From assembly GCA_964423645.1 (NCBI GenBank), contig CAYRFE010000023.1, positions 10,473 through 58,016 on the forward strand: 47,544 nt of DNA. The letters are read 5' to 3'. Source of the stretch: an uncultured bacterium. Lineage in GTDB: Bacteria; Macinerneyibacteriota; Macinerneyibacteria; Macinerneyibacteriales; CAYRFE01. A program made the position numbers and the translations under genes. The notes beneath the pieces are model-generated. The model did not search any database, had not been told where the DNA came from, and saw only the letters and a program-made list of their open reading frames with translations. Shown piece after piece: positions 1 through 47,544 of this stretch (within the stretch, counting starts at the first letter, position 1; every line of letters begins with the position of its first letter).

Positions 1-140
1 AATATTACTATGTGCTCTCCCCAAACCCCTCTCGTTGAAATCGAGAGGGGCTTCATTTGTTTTATAGTGGGGACTTCGTCCCCACACCCCTGTTTTGGAA
101 ATAAAGAAAAATCGGAAATTTTGAATTTTGCAAAACTCTC
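1..140 (-). repeat. G-rich modular intergenic repeat, copy 1 (reverse orientation, truncated by window edge; hairpin subtype C)
   Basis: ccccaaacccctctcgttgaaatcgagagggg ... gtccccacacccc is the reverse complement of the conserved ends ggggtgtggggacg / ggggtttgggg seen in the other copies. It contains the hairpin cccctctcg-atttcaa-cgagagggg. TTTGCAAA motif at 127-136. Confidence 0.75.
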
Positions 141-250
141 ACATCGTTAATAAATGGTAGTTTAAACCTCTCATCAGGGTATTGGGGGGCATTTTTCTTG
201 ACATGCACAGCATATCAACCTACACTTAACCCTATAGAAAGGAGATTACA

Positions 251-4000: not shown

Positions 4001-5635
4001 TTGAAAAAAACGCTGGGTCCGGAAGAGTTGATTGAACAGATTGTTAAAGAGGCCTCAAAGAAAAACGGTATCAGTTATGAAGAATTAAATGACCTGATAC
4101 CTGATGAGGTCGTGTCGCCGGAGATTTTTGAGCGAATCGTGAGTGAATTACAAAAACAAGGTTTGTTGTTGGAAGACAAAGAAGAGTCGAATAAAGAACT
4201 CAATTCTGAAATCCTTGAAAATGCATTAGCCGAAGATACTCTTGATGATCCTGTTCGCTTATATTTGCGCGAGATGGGAAAAGTGCCGTTGCTTGATAAA
4301 GACGGCGAGATTGAGGTCGCCAGACGTATTGAAGAAGGCTACAATATAATCAAAAAGTATATTTTCAAACTCGATTTTATCGTCGACGAGTTGAAGCAAC
4401 GTATTCCCCGATGTGAAGAACGACATTGTGAGGACGTTATCAATATGGACTACGGTGATATTAATAATTTAGATAAACAGGAAGAATATTATCGCAACTT
4501 TAAAATGAATTATGAACGTATTGTTGCTATTCACATGGAAATATCGGAAACGTATGAGAAGATTGAGAAAGCAAAGACTGAAAAAGAACGTGATAAGAAC
4601 ACCCTTTTGATTGAGGCAAAACGTGAACGATTGCGCATCGCGGTTGAAGAGACCAATCTTAATTATACACAAGTTGAAAAACTTGCCGAGCGATTCAAAC
4701 GTATCATGAAGGACATTGATGAAAAAGAGAAGGAATTGAGTCGTATTCGCTTGAAAGAAGACGTAGAAGCATTTGAAATTAGAGGACACGAAGAGCGGAT
4801 TCGTGCAAACGAGAAAAGACTTGGTCTGAAACGCGATGATCTCAATTTTATTCTTTTGGAGGTCAATAAAGGCTTGCGTAAGGTTGAGAAAGCAAAAAAT
4901 CATCTTATCAGCGCAAATGTCCGTCTGGTTATCAGTATCGCAAAAAAATATACCAATCGCGGCTTACAATTTCTTGACCTGATTCAGGAAGGGAATATCG
5001 GGCTTATGCGTGCGGTAGAAAAATTCGATTATAAAAAAGGCTATAAGTTCTCCACGTATGCAACATGGTGGATTCGTCAAGCCATTACTCGTGCAATTGC
5101 CGACCAGGCACGTACCATTCGTATTCCTGTGCATATGATTGAAAATATTAATAAAATAAATAAAGCGATGCGTGTGTTTAAACAGGAAAACGGTCGTGAG
5201 CCTACTACCGAAGAACTTTCACCGATTGTCGATATGCCTGAATCAAAGATCAATCAGATCAAAAAAATTGCGATCGATCCGGTTTCATTGGAAACGCCTG
5301 TCGGAGATCAAGGCGACAGTCAGCTTGGTGATTTTCTTGAAGATACTCGTATTGAATCCCCCGAACGTACGGTGCAGATAAAACTTCTTCGTGAAAAACT
5401 TAACGAACTCTTGCTCACACTTGAAGATCGTGAGCAGAAGATCCTGCGGTTACGTTATTCATGGATAGAGGGGCGGTCGTACACTCTTGAAGAGGTTGGT
5501 TCAAAATTCGGTATCACTCGTGAGCGCGTGCGTCAAATTGAGCAGAAAGCACTGAAAAAACTCAAACATCCGAGCCGCAGACGAATTCTTGAGGATTACG
5601 TGCGTATTATTGAAGAATTATCATCGAAGTATTAA
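4001..5635 (+). CDS. rpoD: RNA polymerase primary sigma factor (sigma-70)
   Basis: Region 2 motifs [36 protein letters not shown] and region 4 [31 protein letters not shown] in frame at 4001 is preceded by GGAGG 7 nt upstream and immediately follows the dnaG stop. The upstream ATG at 3959 lies inside dnaG and lacks an RBS. Confidence 0.9.
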
Positions 5636-5657
5636 TTTCTATTTTTCCGTTTTTCTC

Positions 5658-5685
5658 AAACCCTCCCGAAAATGGGAGGGTTTTA
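5658..5685 (+). terminator. rho-independent terminator after rpoD
   Basis: aaaccctccc-gaaaat-gggaggg followed by TTTT. Confidence 0.75.
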
Positions 5686-5794
5686 CGTTATTATGGTGTG
5701 AAGAATTTTCTCCACGGTCTTTTTAAGGTGTAAAAAAATAGCAAGTTATTGAATTTCACCAACATCTCGTTTTTTTTCTATACTAAATGGATAT

Positions 5795-5996
5795 CTTTGC
5801 AAAAATCAAAATTTCCAAATCATCGTTATTTTCTAAAAAAGGGTGTGGGGACCGTAGCAGGGCTTGTCCCTGCCCGATACTATGCACCGCTACATTGGGA
5901 ATTTTTGTAGCAGAAGATCTTTCTGCCCGCTTTCCGATTTCCATGGGAGGGGTTTGGGGTGAGCACACATTCAAAAATGGTAGTTTTGCAAAGGTC
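5795..5996 (+). repeat. G-rich modular intergenic repeat, copy 3 (complete; subtype B)
   Basis: tctttgcaaaaatcaaaattt ... gggtgtggggacc ... gggaggggtttggggtgagcacacattcaaaaatggtagttttgcaaaggtc. Central part is homologous to copy 2 (tttgtagcaga.gatcttt.tgcc). Confidence 0.8.
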
Positions 5997-6037
5997 AAAT
6001 AATCAAAATGAGATTCAATAAACTGATTATTTTATTG

Positions 6038-6403
6038 TTATTGGTTGAGAAAGTCATCTTCTTCACGAAAAACAGGAATGTGTAATTGCATACTCAAGTT
6101 TTTCATAGTGTTAACGACGTCTAAATAGTCTGTCTTTTTTACATGATATTGACCGACGACACGGCCAATGGGATTCTCAAAAATACGCAATCGTTCTCCT
6201 CGTTTTGTGAAATAGACACAAATGTAATAGTGTGTGGTTTTTTCTTTTCGTGGATTTTTTTCATAAAAGAAGAATGCCCATGATCCGAGTAGTATAAATC
6301 CTGAAATAAAAAACAAACCGAGAATATCACCGGATGTAAAAATATATCGTCCCCAGAGAAGAAAAAGAATAATTGCACCAACCGTGAGGATGTACTTCAT
6401 CAT
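6038..6403 (-). CDS. hypothetical membrane protein (2 TM helices near N-terminus)
   Basis: 121-aa ORF, hydrophobic N-terminal half, no recognisable family. Confidence 0.4.
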   Translation of the reverse strand: MMKYILTVGAIILFLLWGRYIFTSGDILGLFFISGFILLGSWAFFFYEKNPRKEKTTHYYICVYFTKRGERLRIFENPIGRVVGQYHVKKTDYLDVVNTMKNLSMQLHIPVFREEDDFLNQ

Positions 6404-6668
6404 ACACCAGTATAACCGTTACAATGATGATCTTCAAGTGTTGATATAAATACGTATATGAGAAAAGTTGGAAACAATTACGTGATGCGGAAAAATGTGT
6501 TTTAAAAAATACTTGACGAAATGTGTATAGTGCGATATTCTGAAATTCGAACGTTACTGATAAAAGAGGTAAACATAATTTGACGGAGTACTGTTGAATG
6601 CAGAGAAACACTGAATACTACATTTGCTCATGGCAAAAAGACGTGAAAAAGCGCGGAGTCGGCATATA

Positions 6669-7157
6669 ATGACAGACTATCGCATTATTCGGGCAGAACG
6701 TGCGCATCTCCGATTTTGCGCTGAAAGCAGATATGAAGTTTTTCGTGACGACAAAGATTACACAATGCGTAAAGATGATTTTATTCGTATTACCGAGAAT
6801 TATTTTGTAGATCATTTGTCAGACGAAAACGTGATCACGCTTGTAGCGGTCACGGATGCTTGTACAATCGGATGCGGTACTCTTATTGTTCAAGAGCGCT
6901 TACCGCACATTGAGATTTATGAAAATAAACGCGGATATATACTGAATGTATTTGTCAAACCTGAATTTCGCGGTTGTGGAATAGCAAAGATGCTTATGCG
7001 CGCGCTTCATGAAGAAGCAGTACGGAAAAATGTAGCAGTGATTGATCTTCATGCTGCCGATAAAGCATATTCATTATATTTAGCACTAGGATATACGCAT
7101 AATGAAAATTGTCTGGAATTTGATATTCGCTCTGCCATTGATAACAGAAATGTTTGA
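6669..7157 (+). CDS. GNAT family N-acetyltransferase
   Basis: Acetyl-CoA binding motif VFVKPEFRGCGIAKMLMRALHEEA (Q/RxxGxG/A). Start taken at MTDYRII. The six-frame ORF begins at 6624. Confidence 0.65.
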   Translation: MTDYRIIRAERAHLRFCAESRYEVFRDDKDYTMRKDDFIRITENYFVDHLSDENVITLVAVTDACTIGCGTLIVQERLPHIEIYENKRGYILNVFVKPEFRGCGIAKMLMRALHEEAVRKNVAVIDLHAADKAYSLYLALGYTHNENCLEFDIRSAIDNRNV

Positions 7158-7189
7158 ATGTGACGGATATATTAAAACGAGGTAATAAC

Positions 7190-7675
7190 ATGCGCTATGA
7201 CATTATTGATGCCACAAAAAATCATGCATTGTTTCTTGCACAATGCAGGTATGCGATGTTTGCCGCGATGTACCCGAAGGAAGATTTATCGGCAAAAAAG
7301 GATTCTTTCATTGCCGAAGCCGAACGTTATTTCAGACAGCATGAAGCAACGGAACAGTTGCAAAGTGTAATTGCAACGTGTGACGGCAAACCGGTTGGTT
7401 GCGGTACCGCACTGCTGCAGCTGCGTCCGCCAAGTATCAAACATCCTGTAAATATATTTTCATATATACTCAATGTGTTTGTGATGCCTGAACATAGAGG
7501 TAAACAGCTCGCCCGAAAGATGATGGATGCATTGCATGAACGCTCTGAACAACATGGCGCACATACGGTAAGTTTGCATGCTTCTGAGATGGGGTTTCCG
7601 GTATATACCGGTTTGGGATATGAAAAGGTTGAAAACTATTTGGAAATGGCATTGAAACTTGATGAAAATCAATAA
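7190..7675 (+). CDS. GNAT family N-acetyltransferase (paralog of upstream gene)
   Basis: VFVMPEHRGKQLARKMMDALHERS motif, same architecture as 6669-7157. A 4-nt overlap of the longer ORF with the upstream stop suggests an operon. Confidence 0.65.
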   Translation: MRYDIIDATKNHALFLAQCRYAMFAAMYPKEDLSAKKDSFIAEAERYFRQHEATEQLQSVIATCDGKPVGCGTALLQLRPPSIKHPVNIFSYILNVFVMPEHRGKQLARKMMDALHERSEQHGAHTVSLHASEMGFPVYTGLGYEKVENYLEMALKLDENQ

Positions 7676-7697
7676 ACATAGATAATAAGGAACTCAT

Positions 7698-7919
7698 ATG
7701 ACAAATAATACCGTAGATCTGGGATTTTCATATCAAGCAGTGAAAAGCGGTAAGGTGTTTATCTATCGTGATGGAAAAACCGTGACCACGCTTTCAGAAA
7801 AACGTGCGATTGAGTTTTTGGCTCAAATTACCGGAGCTGATGATAATGAAGCTCAAATGATCATGGCTAAAGTAACAGGAAACTATAAACGTGGCAACGA
7901 AAAGCACAAGAAAACGTAA
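7698..7919 (+). CDS. hypothetical small protein (73 aa)
   Basis: RBS aaggaactcatATG, no recognisable domain. Confidence 0.4.
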   Translation: MTNNTVDLGFSYQAVKSGKVFIYRDGKTVTTLSEKRAIEFLAQITGADDNEAQMIMAKVTGNYKRGNEKHKKT

Positions 7920-7961
7920 TAATCCATAAGTTAATTGCGTTTCACTGAAAAGGAGGAGATC

Positions 7962-9251
7962 ATGGAAGTCGGAACCATTCTGATGTATACCGGTATCGGT
8001 ATTGCGGCTATTTTTATGCGTCATATTATCGGCGGTTTTTTTGGGTTGTATCGTATCGTACCGGTGAATGAAGCGCATATTCGTATCTTGCAGAATAAGA
8101 AACAAGTATTTTCCGCACGTGAAGGCAAAACGGCATATTGGTATATACCGTTTATTACAAGGATTCATAAATTACCGTTGTGTAACCTCGCTATTCCCGT
8201 TAATGACATAAAGCTGAATGATAAAAATATGGCAAAATTTGTGTGTGATATCATGTGTTTTATCAATATCAATGATATTAATCTGGCCGTTGAGCGTCTT
8301 GTTCTGACCGATACGACGCATAGCATGGGTTTTGATTTTGTGCGATTGTCTGAGGATTTACGTGCAATTATGGAGAGTATCGGTCGTACTGTGACGACCA
8401 AACAAAGTATTCTCGACATTTATATGGATAGACAGATGCTTGATATGGCAATTACAAAGGAAGTAATTGCGGTATTTCCAAAATGGGGTATAGAACTTGT
8501 TGACCTTGAATTGAAAGACATCAAGGATGCACACGAAAGTACAATTATTTCTGATATTGAACGTAAGGTGGCGGCAGAGATCCGTAGAGACGCTGAAATC
8601 ATTGTTGCAAATACAACCAAGGAAGCTGAACTGGTAAAAGCAGAGGCAGAAGAAATATATCGCAAACGTCAAATTTCAAAAGATATGGAAATCGGTATTT
8701 CCGAACAAGACAAAAATCGACAAATCGCCGAGAAAGAAGCTCAAGCGAATATCGTCCGCGTTGAAGCAAAACGCAAATTAACGGTTGGTGAAGCCGAGAT
8801 TGAAAAACAAAAAATCGAACAACTTGCTCAGGCTGAAAAAATAAAACTGACAACCGAAGCCGAAGGAGAGTCGAACAAAATTACCGCCGTCGGTAAAGCT
8901 GAAGCGAATATTATTCAGATCAAAAAAGAAGCTGAAGCAGCAGGTACGCTCAAACTGGCTGAAGCAATGAAAGAGTTCAATGATACGGCTATCAATGTAA
9001 AAGTGCTTGATATTCAAAAAGAAGTATTGCTCGGAAAGTATGAGGCACTTGCCAAAGCATTACAAGGCGCAGATTTGAAATGGATAATGAGCGGTGATAA
9101 TGCACAAAAATTCTTCGGTATAGACCTGTCTGCAGAAGGCGGGGCGAATCTCAATCAATTTATGCAGGAAGCGGGGATTGACGGTTCTATGGTCGAAAAG
9201 TTTCGCACATTGTTGGGAAAAAATCAAAAAATTGAACATGAGAAAAAGTAA
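7962..9251 (+). CDS. SPFH/band-7 (flotillin-like) membrane scaffold protein
   Basis: N-terminal TM helix, SPFH core, then a long Ala/Glu/Lys coiled-coil tail (EAELVKAEAEEIYRKRQ...AEKEAQANIVRVEAKRK...). RBS aaaggaggagatcATG at 7962. Confidence 0.7.
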   Translation: MEVGTILMYTGIGIAAIFMRHIIGGFFGLYRIVPVNEAHIRILQNKKQVFSAREGKTAYWYIPFITRIHKLPLCNLAIPVNDIKLNDKNMAKFVCDIMCFININDINLAVERLVLTDTTHSMGFDFVRLSEDLRAIMESIGRTVTTKQSILDIYMDRQMLDMAITKEVIAVFPKWGIELVDLELKDIKDAHESTIISDIERKVAAEIRRDAEIIVANTTKEAELVKAEAEEIYRKRQISKDMEIGISEQDKNRQIAEKEAQANIVRVEAKRKLTVGEAEIEKQKIEQLAQAEKIKLTTEAEGESNKITAVGKAEANIIQIKKEAEAAGTLKLAEAMKEFNDTAINVKVLDIQKEVLLGKYEALAKALQGADLKWIMSGDNAQKFFGIDLSAEGGANLNQFMQEAGIDGSMVEKFRTLLGKNQKIEHEKK

Positions 9252-9255
9252 TATG

Positions 9256-9280
9256 AAGGGGGCAAATGCCCCCTTATTTC
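9256..9280 (+). terminator. rho-independent terminator after the flotillin-like gene
   Basis: gaagggggc-aaat-gcccccttatttc. Confidence 0.7.
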
Positions 9281-9289
9281 AGGAGATGC

Positions 9290-9850
9290 ATGAACCACGA
9301 AGTACTGTTTGACAGTGAACGGTTGTTTTTTCGCAGATTGGTCGCGGATGATGCTGAACTGTTTTTTCGAGATCATTCTTTGCCGGACTTGATCCGTTTT
9401 CAAAGCTGGAAACCGAGAACAATTGACGAGATCCGTGATTTTATCAGTAAGCAACACACTATCGAGATTGATACCTACGGTACATGGTTTCAAATGGCGA
9501 TTTGCCTAAAAAATAACGGTTATTTTATCGGTGATTGCGGGTTTCATTTCTCTGATCCCGAAGGATATCAGGTTGATATCGGGTATACTATTGCACCGGA
9601 ATTTCAAGGCAACGGATATGCTGTTGAAAGTGTACACGCAATGGTTCAGTATCTTTTCACGGAGTTGCACAAACATCGTCTATGCGGGTATGTCGACCCC
9701 GGAAATCTTGCCTCAATCCGTGTACTTGAAAAAGCAGGGTTCAGAAAAGAGGCTCATTTTCGAAAAAGCATCATGATAGACGGTCAATGGTGTGATGATG
9801 TTGTTTTTGCCATACTGAAAGAAGAGTTTGTACATAAAAAGGGCGGTTAA
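9290..9850 (+). CDS. GNAT family N-acetyltransferase (RimJ/RimL-like)
   Basis: FQGNGYAVESVHAMVQYLF motif, RBS aggagatgcATG. The six-frame ORF starts inside the terminator at 9266. Confidence 0.65.
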   Translation: MNHEVLFDSERLFFRRLVADDAELFFRDHSLPDLIRFQSWKPRTIDEIRDFISKQHTIEIDTYGTWFQMAICLKNNGYFIGDCGFHFSDPEGYQVDIGYTIAPEFQGNGYAVESVHAMVQYLFTELHKHRLCGYVDPGNLASIRVLEKAGFRKEAHFRKSIMIDGQWCDDVVFAILKEEFVHKKGG

Positions 9851-9895
9851 ACACCACCCGTCGTTGTTATCACTCTATTACCACTATTACAATGT

Positions 9896-10378
9896 TTATT
9901 TCTTGATTTTTTCTGCCCATTCTTTGCAAATTTCCGTCACTCCTTCGAGCGCATCAGATTTCGGTTCTTTAAATTCACAATTACCGATAAACGTATTACC
10001 TTCAAGCATCTTTTCCATATGCTCAATTGTTTTTCCGGGATTGCCTCCGTGAGTGCAGTAGAATGCGATTCGTTTTCCGACAAAAGGTTTTGACGAGAGA
10101 AAAGTTCGTATCGCGGGAGCCATTGTCCATGCCCATACGGGAGTACCGATAATGATGGTTTCATAGTGAGAAAAATCGATCGTGATCGGTTCAAGTTCGG
10201 GAGTTTCTTTCATTTTCGCTTGTTTTCCCAACCAAAAATATTTTTTTAAACCGGTCAAGCGCTTTTCGGCCTTAGGTTTAAGCTCAACAACATCCGCGGG
10301 AAAAATCGGTGACAACAATTCTGAGATCAAACGACAATTTCCCTCATACGAGTAATAGATAATCAGTGTGGTATTCAT
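9896..10378 (-). CDS. flavodoxin-like fold protein (NAD(P)H-dependent FMN reductase/flavodoxin family)
   Basis: MNTTLIIYYSYEGN...GTPVWAWTMAPAIRTFL has the flavodoxin-like pattern. RBS aaggagaaaattATG. Confidence 0.6.
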   Translation of the reverse strand: MNTTLIIYYSYEGNCRLISELLSPIFPADVVELKPKAEKRLTGLKKYFWLGKQAKMKETPELEPITIDFSHYETIIIGTPVWAWTMAPAIRTFLSSKPFVGKRIAFYCTHGGNPGKTIEHMEKMLEGNTFIGNCEFKEPKSDALEGVTEICKEWAEKIKK

Positions 10379-10553
10379 AATTTTCTCCTTGTTGTCCATA
10401 CTATAGAGTTTAAATGATTGTTTTGTCAAGTCAGAATTTTATGATGTGCGAAAAATTCACATTAATTCGTATGGCGAGCGTTCAGAGCAATTCAATTCAT
10501 AAAAATCGTTTTTCTCAAATCCCTTAATCTCAAATATGCGTGTTATAAAGATC

Positions 10554-10587
10554 GTAAAAAAAACGGCAGGTCTAATCACCTGCCGTT
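10554..10587 (-). terminator. bidirectional rho-independent terminator between two minus-strand genes
   Basis: aaaaaaa-cggcaggt-ctaatc-acctgccg-ttttg with an A-run and a T-run on either side. Confidence 0.7.
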
Positions 10588-10606
10588 TTGAACAATGATT
10601 ATCGGA

Positions 10607-11434
10607 TTAATTGAACTTATATCCGAAAAGAATATACAGAGAAGCAGATTCTATAGAAGCGTTTTTCTCGGAATCAGGATCGTGTCCGACAGAATACATA
10701 AACGGGTGTTCACGGAACCATTGCTGACGTTCTGCTGTCGGAAGGGCATCCACACGAGCATATTCTTCGTCAGTCAGCCCGTAGTATTTCTCAAGGCTTG
10801 TTAAACCCATGACATATCTGAAGTCGACAGAGATGTTCGCGGTGAGTTTATATTCAAGACCGAATTGTGCACTCATAACAAATGATTTTAAGCATTCTCC
10901 GATATCAACGTCAGAGTAATCGATATCGATTTCAAAGTCTGTCTCATTTCCTGAACCGTCATAGTCATAGTCTGCTATATACGCTGACATTGAATTGCTG
11001 ACAAGAAGGCCGGCACTCACGCCTGCATAGGGTGTAAATTTATCGACTGAGAATTTTAATAGTACAGGCATTTCAAGATATGACGCATTGATTTCATACT
11101 TTAGAACATCGCGATCAGAAAGGATTAAGCCACTTCCATTATAGTATTCTGAATCAATCTCAAGTTTTCCGCTTCGCGGTGCATAGAATATGCCCGTTTC
11201 AACAGAAAGATAGTCATTAATCGGTAATTCAACCGTCGCACCGATATAGAAGTTGAATACATTTTTGTAGTACTGATCCGGATATGTCATTCCTTCAAAG
11301 CCACCTTCAGGAGCAACCATAAAATCACGTACATTATTCAATCCCAATCCACCCTTCACGCCAAATGACATCTGCGCATACGTTGCACTTAACAAAACAG
11401 CAACGACAACAACCAACAACCCAACCTTTTTCAT
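10607..11434 (-). CDS. outer-membrane beta-barrel protein (porin/OmpA-like barrel family)
   Basis: Signal peptide MKKVGLLVVVVAVLLSATYAQ. Alternating amphipathic strands. C-terminal LYILFGYKFN ends in an aromatic residue as expected for an OMP. RBS aaaaggaggtctgaaATG. Confidence 0.65.
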   Translation of the reverse strand: MKKVGLLVVVVAVLLSATYAQMSFGVKGGLGLNNVRDFMVAPEGGFEGMTYPDQYYKNVFNFYIGATVELPINDYLSVETGIFYAPRSGKLEIDSEYYNGSGLILSDRDVLKYEINASYLEMPVLLKFSVDKFTPYAGVSAGLLVSNSMSAYIADYDYDGSGNETDFEIDIDYSDVDIGECLKSFVMSAQFGLEYKLTANISVDFRYVMGLTSLEKYYGLTDEEYARVDALPTAERQQWFREHPFMYSVGHDPDSEKNASIESASLYILFGYKFN

Positions 11435-11564
11435 TTCAGACCTCCTTTTTTAAAATAAGACATATATAAATATAGCAAGTAATAAAAAAATATCAAGGCA
11501 AACCCAAGAAATATCTGTAATAATAGTTCTTAAGTGATATACTTAGGCAACGAGGTGAGTATAT

Positions 11565-14001: not shown

Positions 14002-14704
14002 TCTTATCGTTTCGATCGTTATGTATGCATTATTGATCGGAATGTTGTTTTATTTGATTTTACCTCGTATTGCTGTAACCGATTGGCTTGTGTTTGTGGT
14101 CGCTGCCATTTTCACGTGTGCGATTTTAGTTTATTCGATCGGTGTATTATTGTTGCTTTCCGGTTCTGCGCTCAATTCTCTTTTTCTCTATTATATGTAT
14201 CATTATTATGTGTTTCCCATAGCAGGAGCATTGACGGCTCTTTTTTGCCGAGACAAATTGCATCAATGGGAGGCATTTATCACTATGAACAATCGTATTT
14301 TGGAAAAGCGTAAGTTTTTACTTACGAAGGATGAGGTGTTGGTGCTTCTACCGCATTGTCTGCAAAATACACGGTGCGGAATTCGTATCACCACTGATTT
14401 GAGTCAATGTAAAGAATGCGGGCAATGTGAGATCGGTGCATTGAAAAAAAGCGTATTGTCACGAGGAATCAAAGGCTATGTCGTGACCGGAAGCACGCTT
14501 GCTAAGAAAGTCATCAAAGAGCATATGCCCAAAGCAATTCTTGCGGTAGCGTGTCACCATGATCTTTTCGAAGGGATTAAAGGAGTATATCCCATCCCTG
14601 TCTACGGTGTGCTCAACACACATCCGGAAGGACCGTGTGTGAATACTCATGTAAATACCGATGCACTGGAGTATGCGATCACAAAAGTGTTTGGGATACA
14701 ATGA
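13988..14704 (+). CDS. DUF116 family protein (membrane-anchored, Cys-rich)
   Basis: Two N-terminal TM helices, then CLQNTRCG...CKECGQCEIG, typical of DUF116. The def-fmt-DUF116 order is conserved in several anaerobic lineages. Confidence 0.6.
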   Translation: MENRNLIVSIVMYALLIGMLFYLILPRIAVTDWLVFVVAAIFTCAILVYSIGVLLLLSGSALNSLFLYYMYHYYVFPIAGALTALFCRDKLHQWEAFITMNNRILEKRKFLLTKDEVLVLLPHCLQNTRCGIRITTDLSQCKECGQCEIGALKKSVLSRGIKGYVVTGSTLAKKVIKEHMPKAILAVACHHDLFEGIKGVYPIPVYGVLNTHPEGPCVNTHVNTDALEYAITKVFGIQ

Positions 14705-14741
14705 TTTAAAATAGTTGACGTACTATCGTAGTAATGATTTA

Positions 14742-14934
14742 ATCTAAATTGGTCAAATTCCCCGAAGCTTGCATCGGTTTTACTGTTATAGTTTTGGTTA
14801 TTATAAGGGGTGTGGGGACGGTGTAGAGACACGGCATGCCGTGTCTGTAACCGAAGAATTAAACCCCTCCCAAAGTCAAAGGGAGGGGTTTGGGGTGGGC
14901 ACAAATCATAAAAATTGTCATTTTGCAAAACGTT
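14742..14934 (+). repeat. modular intergenic repeat, copy 4: 5' module plus G-rich core (subtype A)
   Basis: 5' module tttaatctaaattggtcaaattccccgaagcttgcatcggttttactgttatagttttggttattataa. Core ggggtgtggggacg-[gacacggcatgccgtgtc palindrome]-[cccctccc aaagtcaaa gggagggg hairpin]-tttggggtgggcacaaat. 3' end ttttgcaaaac. Confidence 0.85.
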
Positions 14935-15136
14935 CTCATTTTGGGTTAAATACAGAAATGTATGGATTTTTAACGTCAGAATGAATTAAGTTTGTAGAGC
15001 GGTAGATCCACCCAAAATTAAAGGACGGGAATGGTGCTGATTGAACCCGTAGGTCGCAGGAGGTTCTTTTTGTGTATGTATCTATTATATAAAAAATACC
15101 GCGGTTTCATTGGCGTATGATCTTTTCACACTCTCT

Positions 15137-15164: not shown

Positions 15165-15923
15165 TCATACGTATTTATCTACAAAAAGACCGTTCGCCGC
15201 ATCAGATTGGCTTGATTCGCTTGCACCGGTTGCTTGTCTATTGTTGAGTAATTGTAACAATTGTTGTGCAAAATGTGTGACCCCGTTGTTATCGGCTGTT
15301 TGATTTTGCTCACGTTCTGTTTCCTTTGTCTCGATATCCGCTTGTAGTTCTTCAAGCGTGATGATGCCGTCTCCGTTTGTATCTATCTGCGAGAATAGCG
15401 GTGCCGCGGGTTTGTCGTAAGAATTTCCGATGTTTTTTCCCATTTTGATGAATTCTTCAATTGAAATGCCGTTACTTTCATCGGTGTCAAGATCAGCAAA
15501 CATATCGCTTGCGGAGGGTGGCGGTGGCGGGTGATTGCCACGCATAGGCGAGAGAGCTCCTTGCGGTTTTGAATAGGTCGGGTTCATTTTTTCGGCAACA
15601 GTTTTCATTATTGACGCAACCGACTCCAAGTCACCGGATTGTAATGCATCGATCAGCTCTGTTTGCATTTCATCGGTAAGGACTGAGTTGAGTTTTTCTT
15701 GTAAGCGTGCATTGATAGAATCGTTCATCTCGATTTGCGAGATACCTCCGTTTCCATCGATGTCGGTCTTTGAAAAAATATCAGAGACAGTATCAGCACT
15801 CATCGATCTTTTCACATTTAACTTTGCGAACTCTTCGTTGTTTAAGCTGCCGTCTCCATCGGTATCAAATCTTTTGAATACTCGTGAGAGCATCTGTGCA
15901 TTGGATACGTTTCCGATTTCCAT
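15165..15923 (-). CDS. EF-hand calcium-binding protein (four EF-hand loops, proline-rich linker)
   Basis: DTDGDGSLNNEEF, DIDGNGGISQIEM, DTDESNGISIEEF and DTNGDGIITLEEL match the 12-residue EF-hand loop DxDxDG...E. GNHPPPPPSASD linker. No signal peptide. Confidence 0.75.
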   Translation of the reverse strand: MEIGNVSNAQMLSRVFKRFDTDGDGSLNNEEFAKLNVKRSMSADTVSDIFSKTDIDGNGGISQIEMNDSINARLQEKLNSVLTDEMQTELIDALQSGDLESVASIMKTVAEKMNPTYSKPQGALSPMRGNHPPPPPSASDMFADLDTDESNGISIEEFIKMGKNIGNSYDKPAAPLFSQIDTNGDGIITLEELQADIETKETEREQNQTADNNGVTHFAQQLLQLLNNRQATGASESSQSDAANGLFVDKYV

Positions 15924-16031
15924 GATCGCTCCTTTCTTATGGCATTGCTTGCATGATTGCCGTACTCAAGATATCGGCAGAATCGATGTGTTTCCGTATG
16001 TTTCCATTCGGTTGTAGCGGGTGGAAAGTGA

Positions 16032-16325
16032 TTAATTTCTTTCCGTTTTTTCAATCAATGCTTTCAATACAATAGATTTTAAAAGATCAAGATTGTTTTT
16101 TATTTCTCTAATTTCTTGTTCAAGCCGGTGAATATCGGGGTTTTCTGTGCTCGAATCATGAATATCACAGGCCTCATATTTTTTTATCCATTTTGAAAGC
16201 GTTCCGCATGAAATCCCAAGGATTTTTGCTGTTTCTCGCATTTTTTGGTGATTATCTTTATACAATTTGATCGCATTTTTTCGAAAGCTCATATCAAATC
16301 CGTTACGATGTGATGCAGGTGTCAT
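16032..16325 (-). CDS. IS3-family OrfA-like HTH protein (solo, no OrfB) or small HTH regulator
   Basis: Start at MTPASH is preceded by GGAGG. SFRKNAIKLYKDNHQKMRETAKILGISCGTLSKWIKKYEA is an HTH resembling IS3/IS150 OrfA. C-terminal leucine-zipper-like LEQEIREIKNNLDLLKSIVL. No transposase catalytic ORF follows. Confidence 0.5.
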   Translation of the reverse strand: MTPASHRNGFDMSFRKNAIKLYKDNHQKMRETAKILGISCGTLSKWIKKYEACDIHDSSTENPDIHRLEQEIREIKNNLDLLKSIVLKALIEKTERN

Positions 16326-16405
16326 GGTATACAACCTCCAAACGAGATATTTATTCTGAGTATACGATGCAATTGTGGAGAAATTATGGAGTATGAAAAA
16401 ATGAT

Positions 16406-16798
16406 TCAATCATCAAGTAATCGTTCATGCATATTCGGGCAGCATCCTTCGGCGCAGTCGTAAAACCCTTCGTCATCAATTATGGTACTGACATGGTAGT
16501 GTTCCTGACAATAACATGCATCACACTGCGGGCAATAAGCATCAATGCCAAAATCGAGAAGACGTTTTTTTATGAGAAACCTGTGTAATCCGGCGGCATC
16601 ATTTTTATCAAGAAATCGGTAGATGATTGGTGCATACTTGATATCGACAGCTTTATTGTGCGTAATCCCTTTAAAAATCACGCATAATTTTTTTAGATAG
16701 AACGGAGTGTTATTTTCAATTATGCATGCAGGTTTATTACAAATGTCGCAACGAAATTCAAAGTGATTTACGTCAACCTTTGTGATGGACACACTCAT
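16406..16798 (-). CDS. Cys-rich zinc-ribbon protein (hypothetical)
   Basis: CDICNKPAC, CPQCDACYCQEH and CAEGCC clusters. 4-nt overlap with the upstream sigma54 activator gene implies translational coupling. Confidence 0.5.
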   Translation of the reverse strand: MSVSITKVDVNHFEFRCDICNKPACIIENNTPFYLKKLCVIFKGITHNKAVDIKYAPIIYRFLDKNDAAGLHRFLIKKRLLDFGIDAYCPQCDACYCQEHYHVSTIIDDEGFYDCAEGCCPNMHERLLDD

Positions 16799-32018: not shown

Positions 32019-33080
32019 ATGAAAAATATTTTCATGGTAATAATTGTTATTATAACGTTAGTATTGTTGGTCAAGGCGGATGGTATTGGCAGAGTGAAAT
32101 TTTTCACTGATCCTTCTTGTGAGACGTGTCATAAAGTTGACGCATATCTGCAGGAGCTGAAACCTGCATATTCATTAAAAATAGAAAAATTATCGGTATA
32201 TGAGAAAGAAAATATGGAACGACTGTTCGCGTTGGAGAAAACATACAACGTATCGGTTTCTCAAGTGCCGGTCGTTGAAATTGAGGGTATCGGCATATTG
32301 CAGGGTGATGCTATCCTTCGTGATTTGAAAGAACTGCTTGAAAAAGGACGAACTGATACAAGCACCTCAGATTTCAGCACACGTAACTTTACGATAGGTG
32401 CGGTAGCACTCGCAGGTCTTCTCGACGGTATTAACCCGTGTGCATTTGCGACAATGGTGTTTTTGATACTATTTCTTTTTTCTATCAATAAAAGCCGACG
32501 AGAAATACTCGGCGTGGCACTGTGCTTTTGTGCAGGAGTGTTTATCGCGTATTTTGCAATGGGTATCGGATTACGTGCGGTATTGAGTGCATTGTATAAT
32601 GTTGCGGCAGTGAAGAAGTATTTGAACACAGTGCTTGCAGGAGTATTGATCATTTTGGCGGTATGGTCGTTTGTCGATGCATATTTGTTTATTAAAAAAG
32701 GAATCGTTACGCTCAAACTACCCGAATCCTGGAAACGCTATATCAATCATTTCATTATTATTCGAAGCAAGTACGGCTCTCTGTATGCAGGGAGTATTAT
32801 CACCGGTATCATCGTCTCAGTTATCGAGATCGCCTGCACGGGGCAGATATATATTCCGGTGATAGGCTACATGATCAAAGAAGGTAAAACGTCAGGTTAT
32901 CTTTATCTCACGGTATATAATCTTGCGTTCATTTTGCCGCTTGTCGCAGTGGGTATTGCAGTATTTTTCGGGATGCAGAAAGAAACAGTCCGCACAATGT
33001 TATCGAAGAGTGTTGTAAAAGTAAAGATCGCCATGGGTGTATTGTTCGTGCTTCTTGCGATTTTAATCTCAATGGGTTAA
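32019..33080 (+). CDS. thioredoxin-like domain fused to a CcdA/DsbD-like cytochrome c biogenesis transmembrane domain
   Basis: N-terminal FTDPSCETCH (thioredoxin-like CxxC), then multi-TM region with LLDGINPCAFATMVFL. The last 5 codons and stop lie inside repeat copy 5. Confidence 0.5.
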   Translation: MKNIFMVIIVIITLVLLVKADGIGRVKFFTDPSCETCHKVDAYLQELKPAYSLKIEKLSVYEKENMERLFALEKTYNVSVSQVPVVEIEGIGILQGDAILRDLKELLEKGRTDTSTSDFSTRNFTIGAVALAGLLDGINPCAFATMVFLILFLFSINKSRREILGVALCFCAGVFIAYFAMGIGLRAVLSALYNVAAVKKYLNTVLAGVLIILAVWSFVDAYLFIKKGIVTLKLPESWKRYINHFIIIRSKYGSLYAGSIITGIIVSVIEIACTGQIYIPVIGYMIKEGKTSGYLYLTVYNLAFILPLVAVGIAVFFGMQKETVRTMLSKSVVKVKIAMGVLFVLLAILISMG

Positions 33081-33265
33081 ATTCCCCGAAGCTTGCTTCG
33101 GCTTTACTATTATAGTTTTTTTATTATAAGGGGTGTGGTGACGGTGTAGAGACACGGCATGCCGTGTCTGTAACCGAAAGCCCCTCCCAAAAAGAAAAGG
33201 GAGGGGTTTGGAGTGGGCAAACAAATAAAGTTTTTTTCGGAGATACCCTGTAGCTAGTTCATTAC
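33064..33265 (+). repeat. modular intergenic repeat, copy 5: 5' module + G-rich core (subtype A) + 3' module
   Basis: tttaatctcaatgggttaaattccccgaagcttgcttcggctttactattatagtttttttattataa + ggggtgtggtgacg-[gacacggcatgccgtgtc]-[cccctccc aaaaagaaaa gggagggg]-tttggagtgggcaaacaaat + ggagataccctgtagctagttcat. Confidence 0.85.
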
Positions 33266-39152: not shown

Positions 39153-39488
39153 AATTGGGGCACAAGCTCTGGGTAAATAATCGATTATTATGTCTATTTC
39201 ATTAGCCCCCTCTCATTTGGGAGGGTGACAGGAGCACTTTGTATTCTATCAACGGCATTATTTCCACTCCTGCGGTGCGATAAAAACTTGAATTGACAGA
39301 GCACCTGTTTTCTTATGATTAAAAGCAATGCGATACGTGCACGGTTAATATTATGTCACGTAGAAATATTGTTCATTCTTGTGTCAGTTTCGTGATGTAT
39401 TCCGGAAAAAAGAATAAGAAAATAAATCAAGTGTGACCTTTTCGAAATGTAAAAGATGAGACCCTCGTAAAATTCAAATTCTCTCGTT

Positions 39489-39700
39489 TAATCTCAATGG
39501 GTCAAATCCCCCGAAGCTTGCTTCGGATTTACTATTAATTTTGTTATTATAAGGGGTGTGGGGACGAATTCCCCCACATATTAAAAAAATAAGCCCCGCC
39601 CAAAAGAAAAGGGCGGGGTTTGGGGTGGGCAAACAAATATAGTGTTTTTTGGGGCGATACCCCGTAGCTTGCTGCGGGGTAGTTCATTTTTGCAGGTTGA
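39489..39700 (+). repeat. modular intergenic repeat, copy 6: 5' module + G-rich core (subtype with compensated stems) + 3' module
   Basis: tttaatctcaatgggtcaaatcccccgaagcttgcttcggatttactattaattttgttattataa + ggggtgtggggacgaattcccccaca + [ccccgccc aaaagaaaa gggcgggg] tttggggtgggcaaacaaat + ggggcgataccccgtagcttgctgcggggtagttcat. Confidence 0.85.
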
Positions 39701-39776
39701 TAACAGGGGTGTCGGTAGAGCGCAATGTAAAATTATGGTAGTTTTGCATAAATCTCAAGATATACGTTCTTTTAGT

Positions 39777-39840
39777 CTAAATGAGGCAAATCCGCCGAAG
39801 CATACGCTAGGTTGACTATGATAATTGTGACATGGGAAGA
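39777..39840 (+). repeat. solo, degenerate 5' module of the repeat family
   Basis: tttagtctaaatgaggcaaatccgccgaagcatacgctaggttgactatgataattg aligns with the 5' module (tttaatctcaatgggtcaaatcccccgaagc...). Confidence 0.55.
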
Positions 39841-40063
39841 AGTGTGTAGGTTGAGGTCAGGCAAATCAAAAGCGTCACAGTTTGGGTGGTATAGGAAAGA
39901 TCTTTCCGGGATCAACCTGGCAATTATCGATCGATCGCATCGCATTATACCACAAAGTTCATCGTGGGGAGAGGCTATATACCTCTCCGCAGGGATGTAT
40001 TCTTAAAACGGCAGTTTCGCAAAGGTCTATAGAGAGATGCAGCGCATTGTTTTTCCTGGAGGA

Positions 40064-40768: not shown

Positions 40769-40873
40769 GATGGTCTCCTTTGTTTAATGAATAGTATACG
40801 ACATTCCATGAGTAAAATCAAGAGACGGTTTTAGTGATCACAGGGGGCATCATTGTTGAAAATATAAATGTTG

Positions 40874-41102
40874 AGACCTTTGCGAAACTATCATTTTTTG
40901 AATTTGTGCCCACCCCATCCTTCGACGGAGTTTACACTGAGCGAAGCCGAAGTGCTCAGCACAAGCGCCCCTCCCGCGAAAAATCGGGAGGGGCTTTAAT
41001 TTTCGGTTACAGACACGGCATGCCGTGTCTCTACACCGTCCCCACGCCCCTTTTTTGAAAAAAAGAAAATATAAAAATTTTGAATTTTGCAAAGGTCTTA
41101 TC
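40874..41102 (-). repeat. G-rich modular intergenic repeat, copy 7 (complete with TIRs; subtype A, reverse orientation)
   Basis: agacctttgcgaaa ... atttgtgcccaccccatcc ... [cccctcccg cgaaaaatc gggagggg] ... gacacggcatgccgtgtc ... cgtccccacgcccc ... ttttgaattttgcaaaggtctta. Confidence 0.85.
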
Positions 41103-45758: not shown

Positions 45759-46005
45759 GTTACATTACACTTCTTACCACGCGGAAGCCGATTTCAGCTT
45801 TGGTGATATCAGAATATTTTTTCCACATGTTATAGCGGAATATTTTTTCGTTGTCATAAAACTTCCTTCCCGGGAAACCAATCTTGTCGGATCACGGACA
45901 ATACTTTTTATTGCTGGAATCGGCATGCTCATCTCAATAATACTCGCATAGATTGCTGATTATGTCAAAGAATATATTGTCAGTATTCTTTTTTTCTTTC
46001 AGTAT

Positions 46006-46070
46006 TTAATCTCAACCGGTCAAATTCTTCGAAGCTTTCTTAGGCATTACTGAGGTAGTTTGTGATACGA
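46006..46070 (+). repeat. solo, degenerate 5' module of the repeat family
   Basis: tttaatctcaaccggtcaaattcttcgaagctttcttaggcattactgaggtagtttgtgata aligns with the 5' module consensus. Confidence 0.55.
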
Positions 46071-46240
46071 GAAGCTGTGCGAGGATTGTAGCGACAGGGA
46101 TTGCCTTTGCCTGAAATCACCGAATCGCAAATCGATTATTATTTTTTGAGGTATTCCGCCGTTTGCTGCGGTGATGTTCAGTTGCTACAAACTGTTGCCA
46201 TTGGTGTATGTTCATATTATCTGCTTAAACCACGTCACAA

Positions 46241-47269: not shown

Positions 47270-47442
47270 AATAATTCCTCCTTTTTTTCCGGTTTGACTA
47301 TACACGATCTTTTCACTCAGGCGGTAGTATTATGACAAAGAGTGATTATTGCGGACAATCGAATTTCATCAGTAATCACCACGTTCGATCTATGACGAGT
47401 AAGCTGCGAACACAGTAAGATTTCGTAAATTTTTCACTCTAA

Positions 47443-47499
47443 GGACTTTGCAAAACTTTCATTTTTGAATTTGTGCCCCCCCTTCCGCCCCCCCCCCCA
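47443..47499 (-). repeat. truncated 3'-end fragment of the G-rich repeat with an expanded poly-C/G homopolymer
   Basis: aaggactttgcaaaactttcatttttgaatttgtgccc + cccttccgcccccccccccc. Its reverse complement matches ...gggcacaaattcaaaaa..gttttgcaaag. Confidence 0.6.
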
Positions 47500-47544
47500 T
47501 TTTTCAAATGTATGTTTCGTTTGATCTTCATGTTTATTATTAAT

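Follow-up and report, generated by a model that had tools for sequence, protein, structure and literature searches.

A dense intergenic MITE family with IS5-type ends in an uncultured bacterium of the Mcinerneyibacteriota, with compensatory base changes in its stem-loops

The DNA analysed here, a stretch of 47,544 nucleotides referred to below as the window, carries ordinary housekeeping genes. Its RpoD, a full-length sigma-70 factor with region 1.1, shares 69-76% identity with proteins that carry the label Candidatus Mcinerneyibacteriota or Ca. Mcinerneyibacterium aminivorans. The region, part of a metagenome contig, is assembled almost identically in the ENA, JGI and Logan data, and the other assemblies, being 99.95-100% identical to it, are uninformative about strain polymorphism. 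Between the genes lie 10 copies of a dispersed repeat, all of them intergenic. Positions 14807-14906, which the sequence-only reading had singled out for the pairing of a hairpin, are the core of a single one of these copies, c4; the sequences quoted in that reading are indeed present where it placed them. The core of c4 runs, in order, through a G-rich L box, hairpin 1, a short A/T linker, hairpin 2 and a G-rich R box. The features of this copy are the following.

14738-14806, plus strand: accessory left module of c4 (the "U module"), found as a repeat
14807-14819, plus strand: L box GGGGTGTGGGGAC, G-rich, bounding the core on the left
14819-14853, plus strand: hairpin 1 of the c4 type, a CGGT..ACCG outer stem enclosing the palindrome GACACGGCATGCCGTGTC (14828-14845)
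14861-14891, plus strand: hairpin 2, with stem CCCCTCCC (14864-14871) / GGGAGGGG (14881-14888) and loop AAAGTCAAA
14889-14902, plus strand: R box TTTGGGGTGGGCAC, beginning TTTGGGG (14889-14895)
14921-14937, plus strand: right terminal inverted repeat of c4, degenerate (TTTTGCAAAACGTTCTC against the consensus TTTTGCAAAGGTCTC)

The L box and the first part of the R box repeat each other directly, with the string GGGGTNTGGGG in common. In c4 the stem of hairpin 2 is lengthened by AAA/TTT, which extends it from 14864-14888 to 14861-14891. The U module holds a small hairpin of its own, CCGAAG-CTTG-CATCGG (14762-14777), and occurs again at 33062, 39487, 39771 and 46005. The core of c4 folds well below dinucleotide-shuffled sequences on both strands, with z values of -5.2 and -5.6 when it is folded as DNA and of -4.2 and -5.6 when it is folded as RNA.

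The other copies in the window differ in their length, in their modules and in their state of preservation.

1-140, minus strand: copy c1, cut by the start of the window; complete in the sequence to its left (L109, 9273-9434)
1505-1702, plus strand: copy c2, full length with both terminal inverted repeats; c2-type hairpin 1; two T.G wobbles in hairpin 2
5790-5998, plus strand: copy c3, full length; hairpin 2 with T.G at positions 4 and 6 and G.T at position 9
33062-33245, plus strand: copy c5, U module and core; hairpin 2 at 33181-33206 with the same stem as c4
39458-39756, plus strand: copy c6, long form with terminal inverted repeat, U module, core, right-hand hairpin and terminal inverted repeat
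39771-40029, plus strand: copy c6b, with decayed G boxes; right terminal inverted repeat kept
40873-41099, minus strand: copy c7, full length, with an extra hairpin inserted between hairpin 2 and the R box
46005-46200, plus strand: copy c8b, a strongly decayed long form in which the U module and the right-hand hairpin are recognisable
47441-47544, minus strand: copy c8, a short form without hairpins; complete in L111 (13642-13744)

The left part of c8 is unreliable in the window, owing to a poly-G run and a disagreement between assemblies. The start of the U module of c5 provides the final codons and the stop of ORF 32019-33080. The window contains seven L boxes, each with one partner R box. 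The R-box pattern matches nine times in the window against 0.7 expected, a number that none of 100 shuffles reached.

Profile searches over 139 kb from the same organism raised the number of copies to about 34. This sample consists of the window, 9.3 kb to its left (L109) and five further loci (L130-L135), which were reached by translating the open frames of the repeat and searching proteins for the resulting spurious ORFs. Of these copies, 24 are long forms that have both boxes, 4 are short forms and 6 are truncated or decayed. This amounts to about one repeat per 4 kb of the DNA sampled and, as roughly estimated from the number of copies and their length, to about 4% of it. Logan short-read contigs end inside the repeat, as is expected of a high-copy element. 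Pattern scans of larger collections brought only chance matches. A 17-nt degenerate R-box pattern, too short for the purpose, gave 105 unrelated matches in a genome-contig collection, none of them with an L box; a 23-nt pattern gave a single one in a metagenome-contig collection, which evidently does not include the sample of this organism; and two pattern scans of viral contigs gave chance matches only.

The full element measures 110-300 bp. It contains no transposase gene, and the only open reading frames across it are spurious ones that translate the repeat. At the start of a full-length copy stands (G)AGACCTTTGCAAAATTCAAAATTTCC, at its end the inverted sequence TTTTGCAAAGGTCT(C); in at least 13 copies both ends carry the 15-nt terminal inverted repeat (G)AGACCTTTGCAAAA, in inverted orientation. 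ISNme1, a member of the IS5 family, has GAGACCTTTGCAAAA/TTTTGCAAAGGTCTC as its listed terminal inverted repeat, and the ends of the Porphyromonas gingivalis MITE BrickBuilt and of ISPg1/ISPg9 lie within one or two bases of GAGACCTTTGCAAAA (PMC4596501). Insertion leaves a 5-bp target duplication: 42 of 65 flanking positions match, against 25.9 +/- 3.5 when each left flank is set against the right flank of another copy (p = 1e-5), and the signal is confined to one register. The base beside AGACC takes no part in the duplication; since it is mostly G at the left end and C at the right, it belongs to the inverted repeat. A 7-bp duplication was considered and dropped, the position-wise count giving 5 bp plus one base of the inverted repeat. 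The duplication is perfect in the flanks of c8 (TAGAGT/TAGAGT).

Signs of movement are also found. Copy e10 is nested in e9, and the removal of e10 together with one copy of TTATRT restores the consensus of the family. In a relative with an RpoD 95% identical, the copies flanking dnaG-rpoD are absent and a different copy (a fragment at a contig end) lies upstream of a neighbouring gene. Relatives at 92% and 75% RpoD identity have no copies in 12 kb and 22 kb, respectively. The terminal inverted repeats, the target duplication, the dispersal and the mobility therefore identify the element as a MITE, i.e. a non-autonomous DDE transposon, with IS5-type ends, and not as a REP/RAYT or IS200-type single-strand element. 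The Pfam gene tables for the 139 kb of genome sampled list no DDE transposase, and the gene tables for the same 139 kb list no Y1 transposase (Y1_Tnp, RAYT) either.

The interior of the element is modular. The core is combined with several left-hand modules (the terminal-inverted-repeat type, the U module and the X2 type), and the long forms c6 and d6 carry an extra small hairpin with a CUUG loop on each side of the core, within the ends. Short forms (e4, e13, e14 and c8) have both ends and a single fused box (GGGGTGTGGGGTGGGCAC or GGGGTTTGGGTGGGCAC), without hairpins. They are best read as deletions in which the L and R boxes recombined or slipped against each other, since both L-type and R-type junctions occur; e12 shows a similar deletion between G runs. 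Several copies (c6b, c8b, d5, d7, e3 and e11) are visibly decaying, and c6b nevertheless retains a perfect 7-bp hairpin, GGAGAGG/CCTCTCC, at 39968-39988.

It had been claimed from the window alone that the pairing of hairpin 2 is preserved by compensatory changes at independent positions. This was followed up by tabulating nine stem positions of hairpin 2 in 23 copies from the 139 kb, and the claim is borne out. The consensus stem is CCCCTCCCG/CGGGAGGGG. Canonical pairs occupy 171 of the 184 stem cells formed by positions 1-8 in the 23 copies, and permuting the 3' arms among the copies gives p = 3e-4 for eight positions and p = 1e-5 for nine. Pairs changed on both sides are found at position 5 (T-A to G-C, in c6), position 6 (C-G to T-A, in e7), position 7 (C-G to T-A, in c1 and e11, probably a single event) and position 9 (G-C to A-T, in c9 and e7). 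Two of these lie in the window: the compensated G-C pair of c6 (39594-39618, CCCCGCCC/GGGCGGGG) and the compensated T-A pair (CCCCTCTCG/CGAGAGGGG) of c1 (26-50, minus strand, CCCCTCTC/GAGAGGGG); the stem of c7 (40967-40994, minus strand) is the same as that of c4. Single changes lead to G.T or T.G in seven cases and to A.C in three. The plain mismatches occupy about 13 cells, five of which trace back to a single G.G inherited within the c2-type subfamily, and four of which belong to one decaying copy.

The 19 copies with a 7-nt loop were in addition compared with 500 shuffles, a control that, like the permutation, ignores the kinship of the copies. Of their stem cells 89.5% are paired against 86.6 +/- 0.7% after shuffling, and the covariation score is 0.142 against 0.093; neither value was reached in any of the 500 shuffles. 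Three pairs are changed on both sides, a number reached in 11 of the 500. Shifting the partner by one to three columns lowers pairing to about 60%. Compensatory changes stay more frequent than expected from shuffling as the sample grows from 7 to 23 copies. RNAalifold, which had been proposed as a check, recovers the stem of hairpin 2, but its covariation term is near zero, because most stem cells are invariant. The same program extends hairpin 2 by UAAG/UUUG (U.G, A-U, A-U, G.U), a pairing that exists on the G-rich strand only and is conserved in 11-12 of 13 copies. The compensatory changes of hairpin 2 are real and rest on few events, namely three independent double changes.

The 5' stem requires a different reading. 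The alternation between GACACGGCATGCCGTGTC and TGTGGGG..CCCCACA had been presented as further covariation. These are non-homologous hairpin modules that replace each other, and this part of the claim does not hold. At least four unrelated modules follow the L box across the copies (the c1, c2, c4 and c3/c10 types). The c4 type is identical in six copies, the others having non-homologous hairpins at the same place, and hairpins 1 and 2 are themselves unrelated in sequence. Covariation is present inside the module types. In the commonest hairpin 1, the c1 type, the 5' arm is the L box itself (GTGGGGAC-GAA-GTCCCCAC); double changes lead from T-A to C-G in e2 and from G-C to A-T in e5 and e10, and G.T intermediates are found in c9 and e10. 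Paired cells make up 95.5% of this stem, and its covariation score was reached by 5 of 500 shuffles. The c2-type hairpin 1, GGGTGCAT-GGT-ATGCACCC, offers at one position a complete stepwise series, T-A in c2 and d7, T.G in e1 and C-G in d5. Independent double changes thus number two in the commonest hairpin 1 and one in the c2 type.

Conservation is unevenly spread over the core. When 11 copies of the c1 type are aligned, the boxes and both arms of both stems show 90-100% column identity, against 30-70% for the linker, the loop of hairpin 2 and the flanks. Since stems and loops or linkers are compared inside the same copies, this contrast favours constraint on the core over recent origin alone. 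A pairing constraint on the stems, with purifying selection, is likely, and the proposal that there is selection on secondary structure, beyond inherited identity, is the best reading of the data. The strand that folds is less clear. Single changes in both hairpins lead to 14 G.T against 5-7 A.C, an excess that is not significant. Taken with the UAAG/UUUG extension, it is only suggestive of the G-rich strand as the folding strand, and it could equally reflect a sequence constraint on the G-rich arms.

The core is also better conserved than the transposon ends. The ends suffice for a DDE transposase, and the better-conserved internal core is thus left unexplained by transposition. The copies lie in about 14 tandem, about 9 convergent and 3 divergent spacers, and their orientation shows no bias with respect to the neighbouring genes (about 6 co-directional and 10 antisense in tandem spacers). 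The neighbouring genes retain their own canonical terminators. No conserved promoter or terminator was found around the core, and a search of Rfam 15 gave no matches at gathering thresholds, the only ones at E <= 5 being unrelated chance matches.

Several known kinds of element were considered and rejected. Hairpin 2 does not qualify as an intrinsic terminator: on the plus strand the stem is followed by TTTGGGG, with just three T and no U tract, and a terminator scan found a terminator-like site on the minus strand of c4 only. A sigma-54 promoter in TGGTAGTTTTGCA was discarded on account of its GG-to-GC spacing, which is 9 and not 12. For a promoter of the Bacteroidota or sigma-70 type, neither the ends nor the U module offered a consistent spacing, and this idea was dropped too, RpoD being a full-length sigma-70 factor with region 1.1. 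The boxes are direct, not inverted, and have no cassette context, so that an integron attC site does not apply. No feature supports a CRISPR, retron or tracrRNA-like RNA.

The element is best explained as follows. An IS5-family DDE transposase, acting on the ends, may move it in trans. Between the ends, a cassette of GC-rich stem-loops is enclosed by two G-tract direct repeats, the L and R boxes. The stems are likely held by purifying selection for pairing: their rare substitutions are often complemented or pass through G.T intermediates, and loops and linkers drift freely. The relevant paired form would presumably be a single-stranded state of the G-rich strand, most likely RNA arising from read-through of the element from neighbouring genes. 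Such a stem-loop module might protect, process or weakly terminate transcript ends, as has been proposed for REP, ERIC, bcr1 and SPRITE (PMC3184786). There is precedent both for MITEs folding at the RNA level and for compensatory changes, the latter in bcr1 (PMC3184786). We consider it probable that the whole explanation is of this kind: a trans-mobilised IS5-type MITE whose stems are kept by selection for pairing, most likely as read-through RNA.

Other explanations share part of this evidence. Matched changes need not reflect selection on structure, since they could come from arm-templated repair or replication (quasipalindrome correction), with the identity of the cores stemming from recent bursts of a few master copies. 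Templated mutation in quasipalindromes is an established mechanism. Most stem cells here are identical by descent (14-18 of 19 copies share the same pair per position, 11 of 19 at the closing pair), which agrees with the near-zero RNAalifold term; some compensated pairs are common to related copies (c1 and e11, e5 and e10), and many copies are decaying. But the G.T intermediates and the T-A, T.G, C-G series fit stepwise substitution under a pairing constraint and not templating in one step, and recency offers no explanation for loops, linker and flanks that diverge so much more than the stems of the same copies. We hold this alternative to be unlikely. It is improbable, too, that the hairpins are recognition structures of a Y1 (HUH) transposase, of the REP/REPIN-RAYT or IS200/IS605-derived kind, with pairing selected because the transposase binds folded single-stranded DNA. 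Single-stranded transposition of the REP/RAYT or IS200-like type had been offered as an option in the sequence-only reading. GC-rich hairpins with compensatory changes would suit it, as would G.T pairs tolerated on one strand, a GTAG just 5' of hairpin 1 in c3, c10 and copies of the c4 type, and the same small hairpin (CCGAAGCTTGCTTCGG / CCGTAGCTTGCTGCGG) in direct orientation on both sides of the core in long forms. However, REP and IS200/IS605 elements have neither terminal inverted repeats nor a target duplication, and IS5-type 15-nt inverted repeats with a 5-bp duplication are characteristic of MITEs moved by double-strand cut-and-paste. Moreover, the commonest hairpins (the c1-type hairpin 1 and hairpin 2) have no GTAG, the two hairpins are not related to each other, the gene tables for the 139 kb list no Y1_Tnp domain, and the similar flanking hairpins are limited to the long-form subfamily (c6, d6), where they lie inside the inverted repeats.

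That the cores are independently transcribed small RNA genes or cis-regulatory RNAs, the transposon ends being incidental, is in our view less probable still. The better conservation of the core than of the flanks, its combination with different left modules and its make-up, with a pair of stable stems, G-rich boxes that are single-stranded and conserved, and G.U pairing on one of the strands, would speak for it; the absence of any related Rfam match even at E <= 5, of a conserved promoter or terminator around the core and of an orientation bias towards neighbouring genes speaks against it, and a density of about one per 4 kb, nesting and decay are typical of mobile DNA and not of RNA genes. 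Lowest of all we place a role at the DNA level, in which the G boxes would form a G-quadruplex (with an i-motif opposite) that competes with hairpin 2 and affects replication, recombination or transcription. With the R box, hairpin 2 contributes through its 3' arm to four G tracts, GGGAGGGGTTTGGGGTGGG, that fit G3+N1-7 x4, the L-box string (ACA)GGGGTGTGGGG is that of a well-studied quadruplex-forming human repeat, and deletions between G runs are frequent (the short forms e4, e13, e14 and c8, and e12). Yet the otherwise intact copies c1 and c5 break the four-tract motif, and the covariation of the stems is left unexplained. Each of these rivals, single-stranded DNA recognition, templated mutation, a small RNA and a quadruplex, is rated lower than a module of read-through RNA. 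A further reading is that the 80-nt core is a functional single-stranded module on which the host or the element relies (a structured RNA or, on the G-rich strand, a switch between hairpin and G-quadruplex) and not passive transposon filler. It is suggested by a core that is better conserved than the ends, has at least three flanking modules and has stems that covary, and we regard it as possible but doubtful.

Among known systems, the closest in their ends are the IS5-end MITEs of Neisseria meningitidis (ATR/ISNme1) and P. gingivalis (BrickBuilt, MITEPgRS/ISPg1, ISPg9), which are likewise short, non-coding, multi-copy and intergenic (PMC4596501) and have in common with the present element short target duplications, nesting into other repeats and terminal inverted repeats that are the same (ISNme1) or near-identical (BrickBuilt, ISPg1). 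They differ in their far lower density, about 19 per genome as against about 34 copies in 139 kb, and in their internal content, a minisatellite as against a G-box/hairpin cassette; the present element, moreover, belongs to an unrelated candidate phylum. In its manner of evolution it resembles bcr1 of the Bacillus cereus group and ERIC/IRU of enterobacteria. These are also MITE-like and intergenic with short direct-repeat flanks, have predicted stem-loops kept by compensatory changes, and range from intact to decayed copies (PMC3184786). They have no sequence similarity to it, and their long hairpin is formed by the two halves of the element, whereas here a two-hairpin core lies internally between G-tract direct repeats. 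REP/BIME and REPIN-RAYT systems share with it GC-rich extragenic palindromes in high copy number, mosaic modules, a location between convergent or tandem genes and a GTAG by some hairpins. Unlike them, the present element has terminal inverted repeats and a target duplication, its main hairpins have no GTAG, and neither inverted REP doublets nor a RAYT were found in the 139 kb. The SPRITE and terminator-like repeats of Streptococcus pneumoniae, finally, have a comparable GC-rich stem-loop, often just downstream of genes; here hairpin 2 is followed by TTTGGGG instead of a U tract, the genes keep their own terminators and there is no orientation bias.

Compensatory pairing in bacterial intergenic repeats is thus already known, and the present family adds one more case, from a distant lineage, of mobile intergenic repeats with selected stem-loops. 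It is a previously undescribed and unusually dense MITE family in the uncultured candidate phylum Mcinerneyibacteriota, linked by its ends to IS5-family transposases, and its internal stem-loops are a textbook example of structure-preserving evolution. For the genome of this organism the repeats have practical consequences: they break its short-read assemblies, yield spurious ORF calls, several of which have entered public protein databases, and can donate stop codons to genes. They would represent a new kind of system only if the core turned out to be functional in its own right. In that case, the MITE would serve to distribute a device that acts in cis, as RNA or DNA, among the intergenic regions of an uncultured phylum.

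Copies of the repeat, a dispersed intergenic MITE with IS5-type ends, also bear on a neighbouring gene and on gene calling. At window positions 33062-33080, ORF 32019-33080 takes its final codons and its stop from the start of the U module (the accessory left module) of copy c5, so that the 3' end of this gene has been reshaped by the element. In the public protein collections, several "proteins" of 42-127 aa (P0121-P0127) are translations of the repeat itself (for example ...KKGCGDEVPT..KPLPIFTGGVWGGH...), and these entries are spurious gene calls. Terminators similar to the hairpins of the repeat were also seen standing alone, in the window (5658-5683) and at a further locus of the same organism, L134 (~9667-9700). 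The rpoD terminator, AAACCCTCCC-GAAAAT-GGGAGGGTTT followed by T, is similar to hairpin 2, while GTAGAGACAAGGCAATGCCTTGTCTCTTTTTT, found 3' of a peptidase gene, is similar to hairpin 1 of the c4 type, with a compensated change of a C-G to an A-T pair.

A second repeat family of about 100 nt, unrelated to the MITE, was noted at three places, all outside the window. It has the inverted ends GTGTCATT...AATGACAC (GTGTCATTCCCGTCCCCGTTTTCACGAGG...GGATTATCGGGTCAAGCCCGATAATGACAC), and its copies are the following:

L109 (the 9.3-kb stretch to the left of the window), 4946-5043: copy followed by the repeated module ACTTGAATTGCTTCACGNTGATTTTTTAAGGCC
L134, 9879-9979: copy followed by the same module
L134, ~14480-14565: copy directly adjoining the left end of MITE copy e9

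The module that follows two of these copies is also the left flank of some copies of the MITE core (e2, e7 and near c10).

The final 50 bases of the window (47495-47544) differ from the sequence that JGI assembled for this locus (L111, 13642-13760). The two assemblies part at a poly-G run (GGGGGGGGGGGCGGAAGGGGGGG versus 17 G); either a mis-join or a sequencing artefact at a short-form copy of the repeat is the probable cause.

In a relative whose RpoD is 75% identical, ilvC-def-fmt comes immediately after rpoD (L115, 11635-11638), whereas in the window ~6 kb separates rpoD from ilvC, an interval that holds eight additional genes and one copy of the repeat:

Window 5636-11564: extra genes, for acetyltransferases, Band_7, flavodoxin and an outer-membrane barrel, among the products

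A trio of genes encoding an EF-hand protein (252 aa), a small HTH_Tnp_1 protein and a small unknown protein (window 15165-16798; L114, 6443-8246) is conserved in two related genomes beside differing neighbours, so the HTH_Tnp_1 protein is probably not a component of an insertion sequence.

Upstream of ORF 251-673 lies a near-consensus sigma-70 promoter, TTGACA-17 nt-TACACT (window 176-210), which is kept in the relative with 95% RpoD identity. This shows that classical promoters are in use by the organism, despite the SprB and T9SS-type proteins that it encodes.
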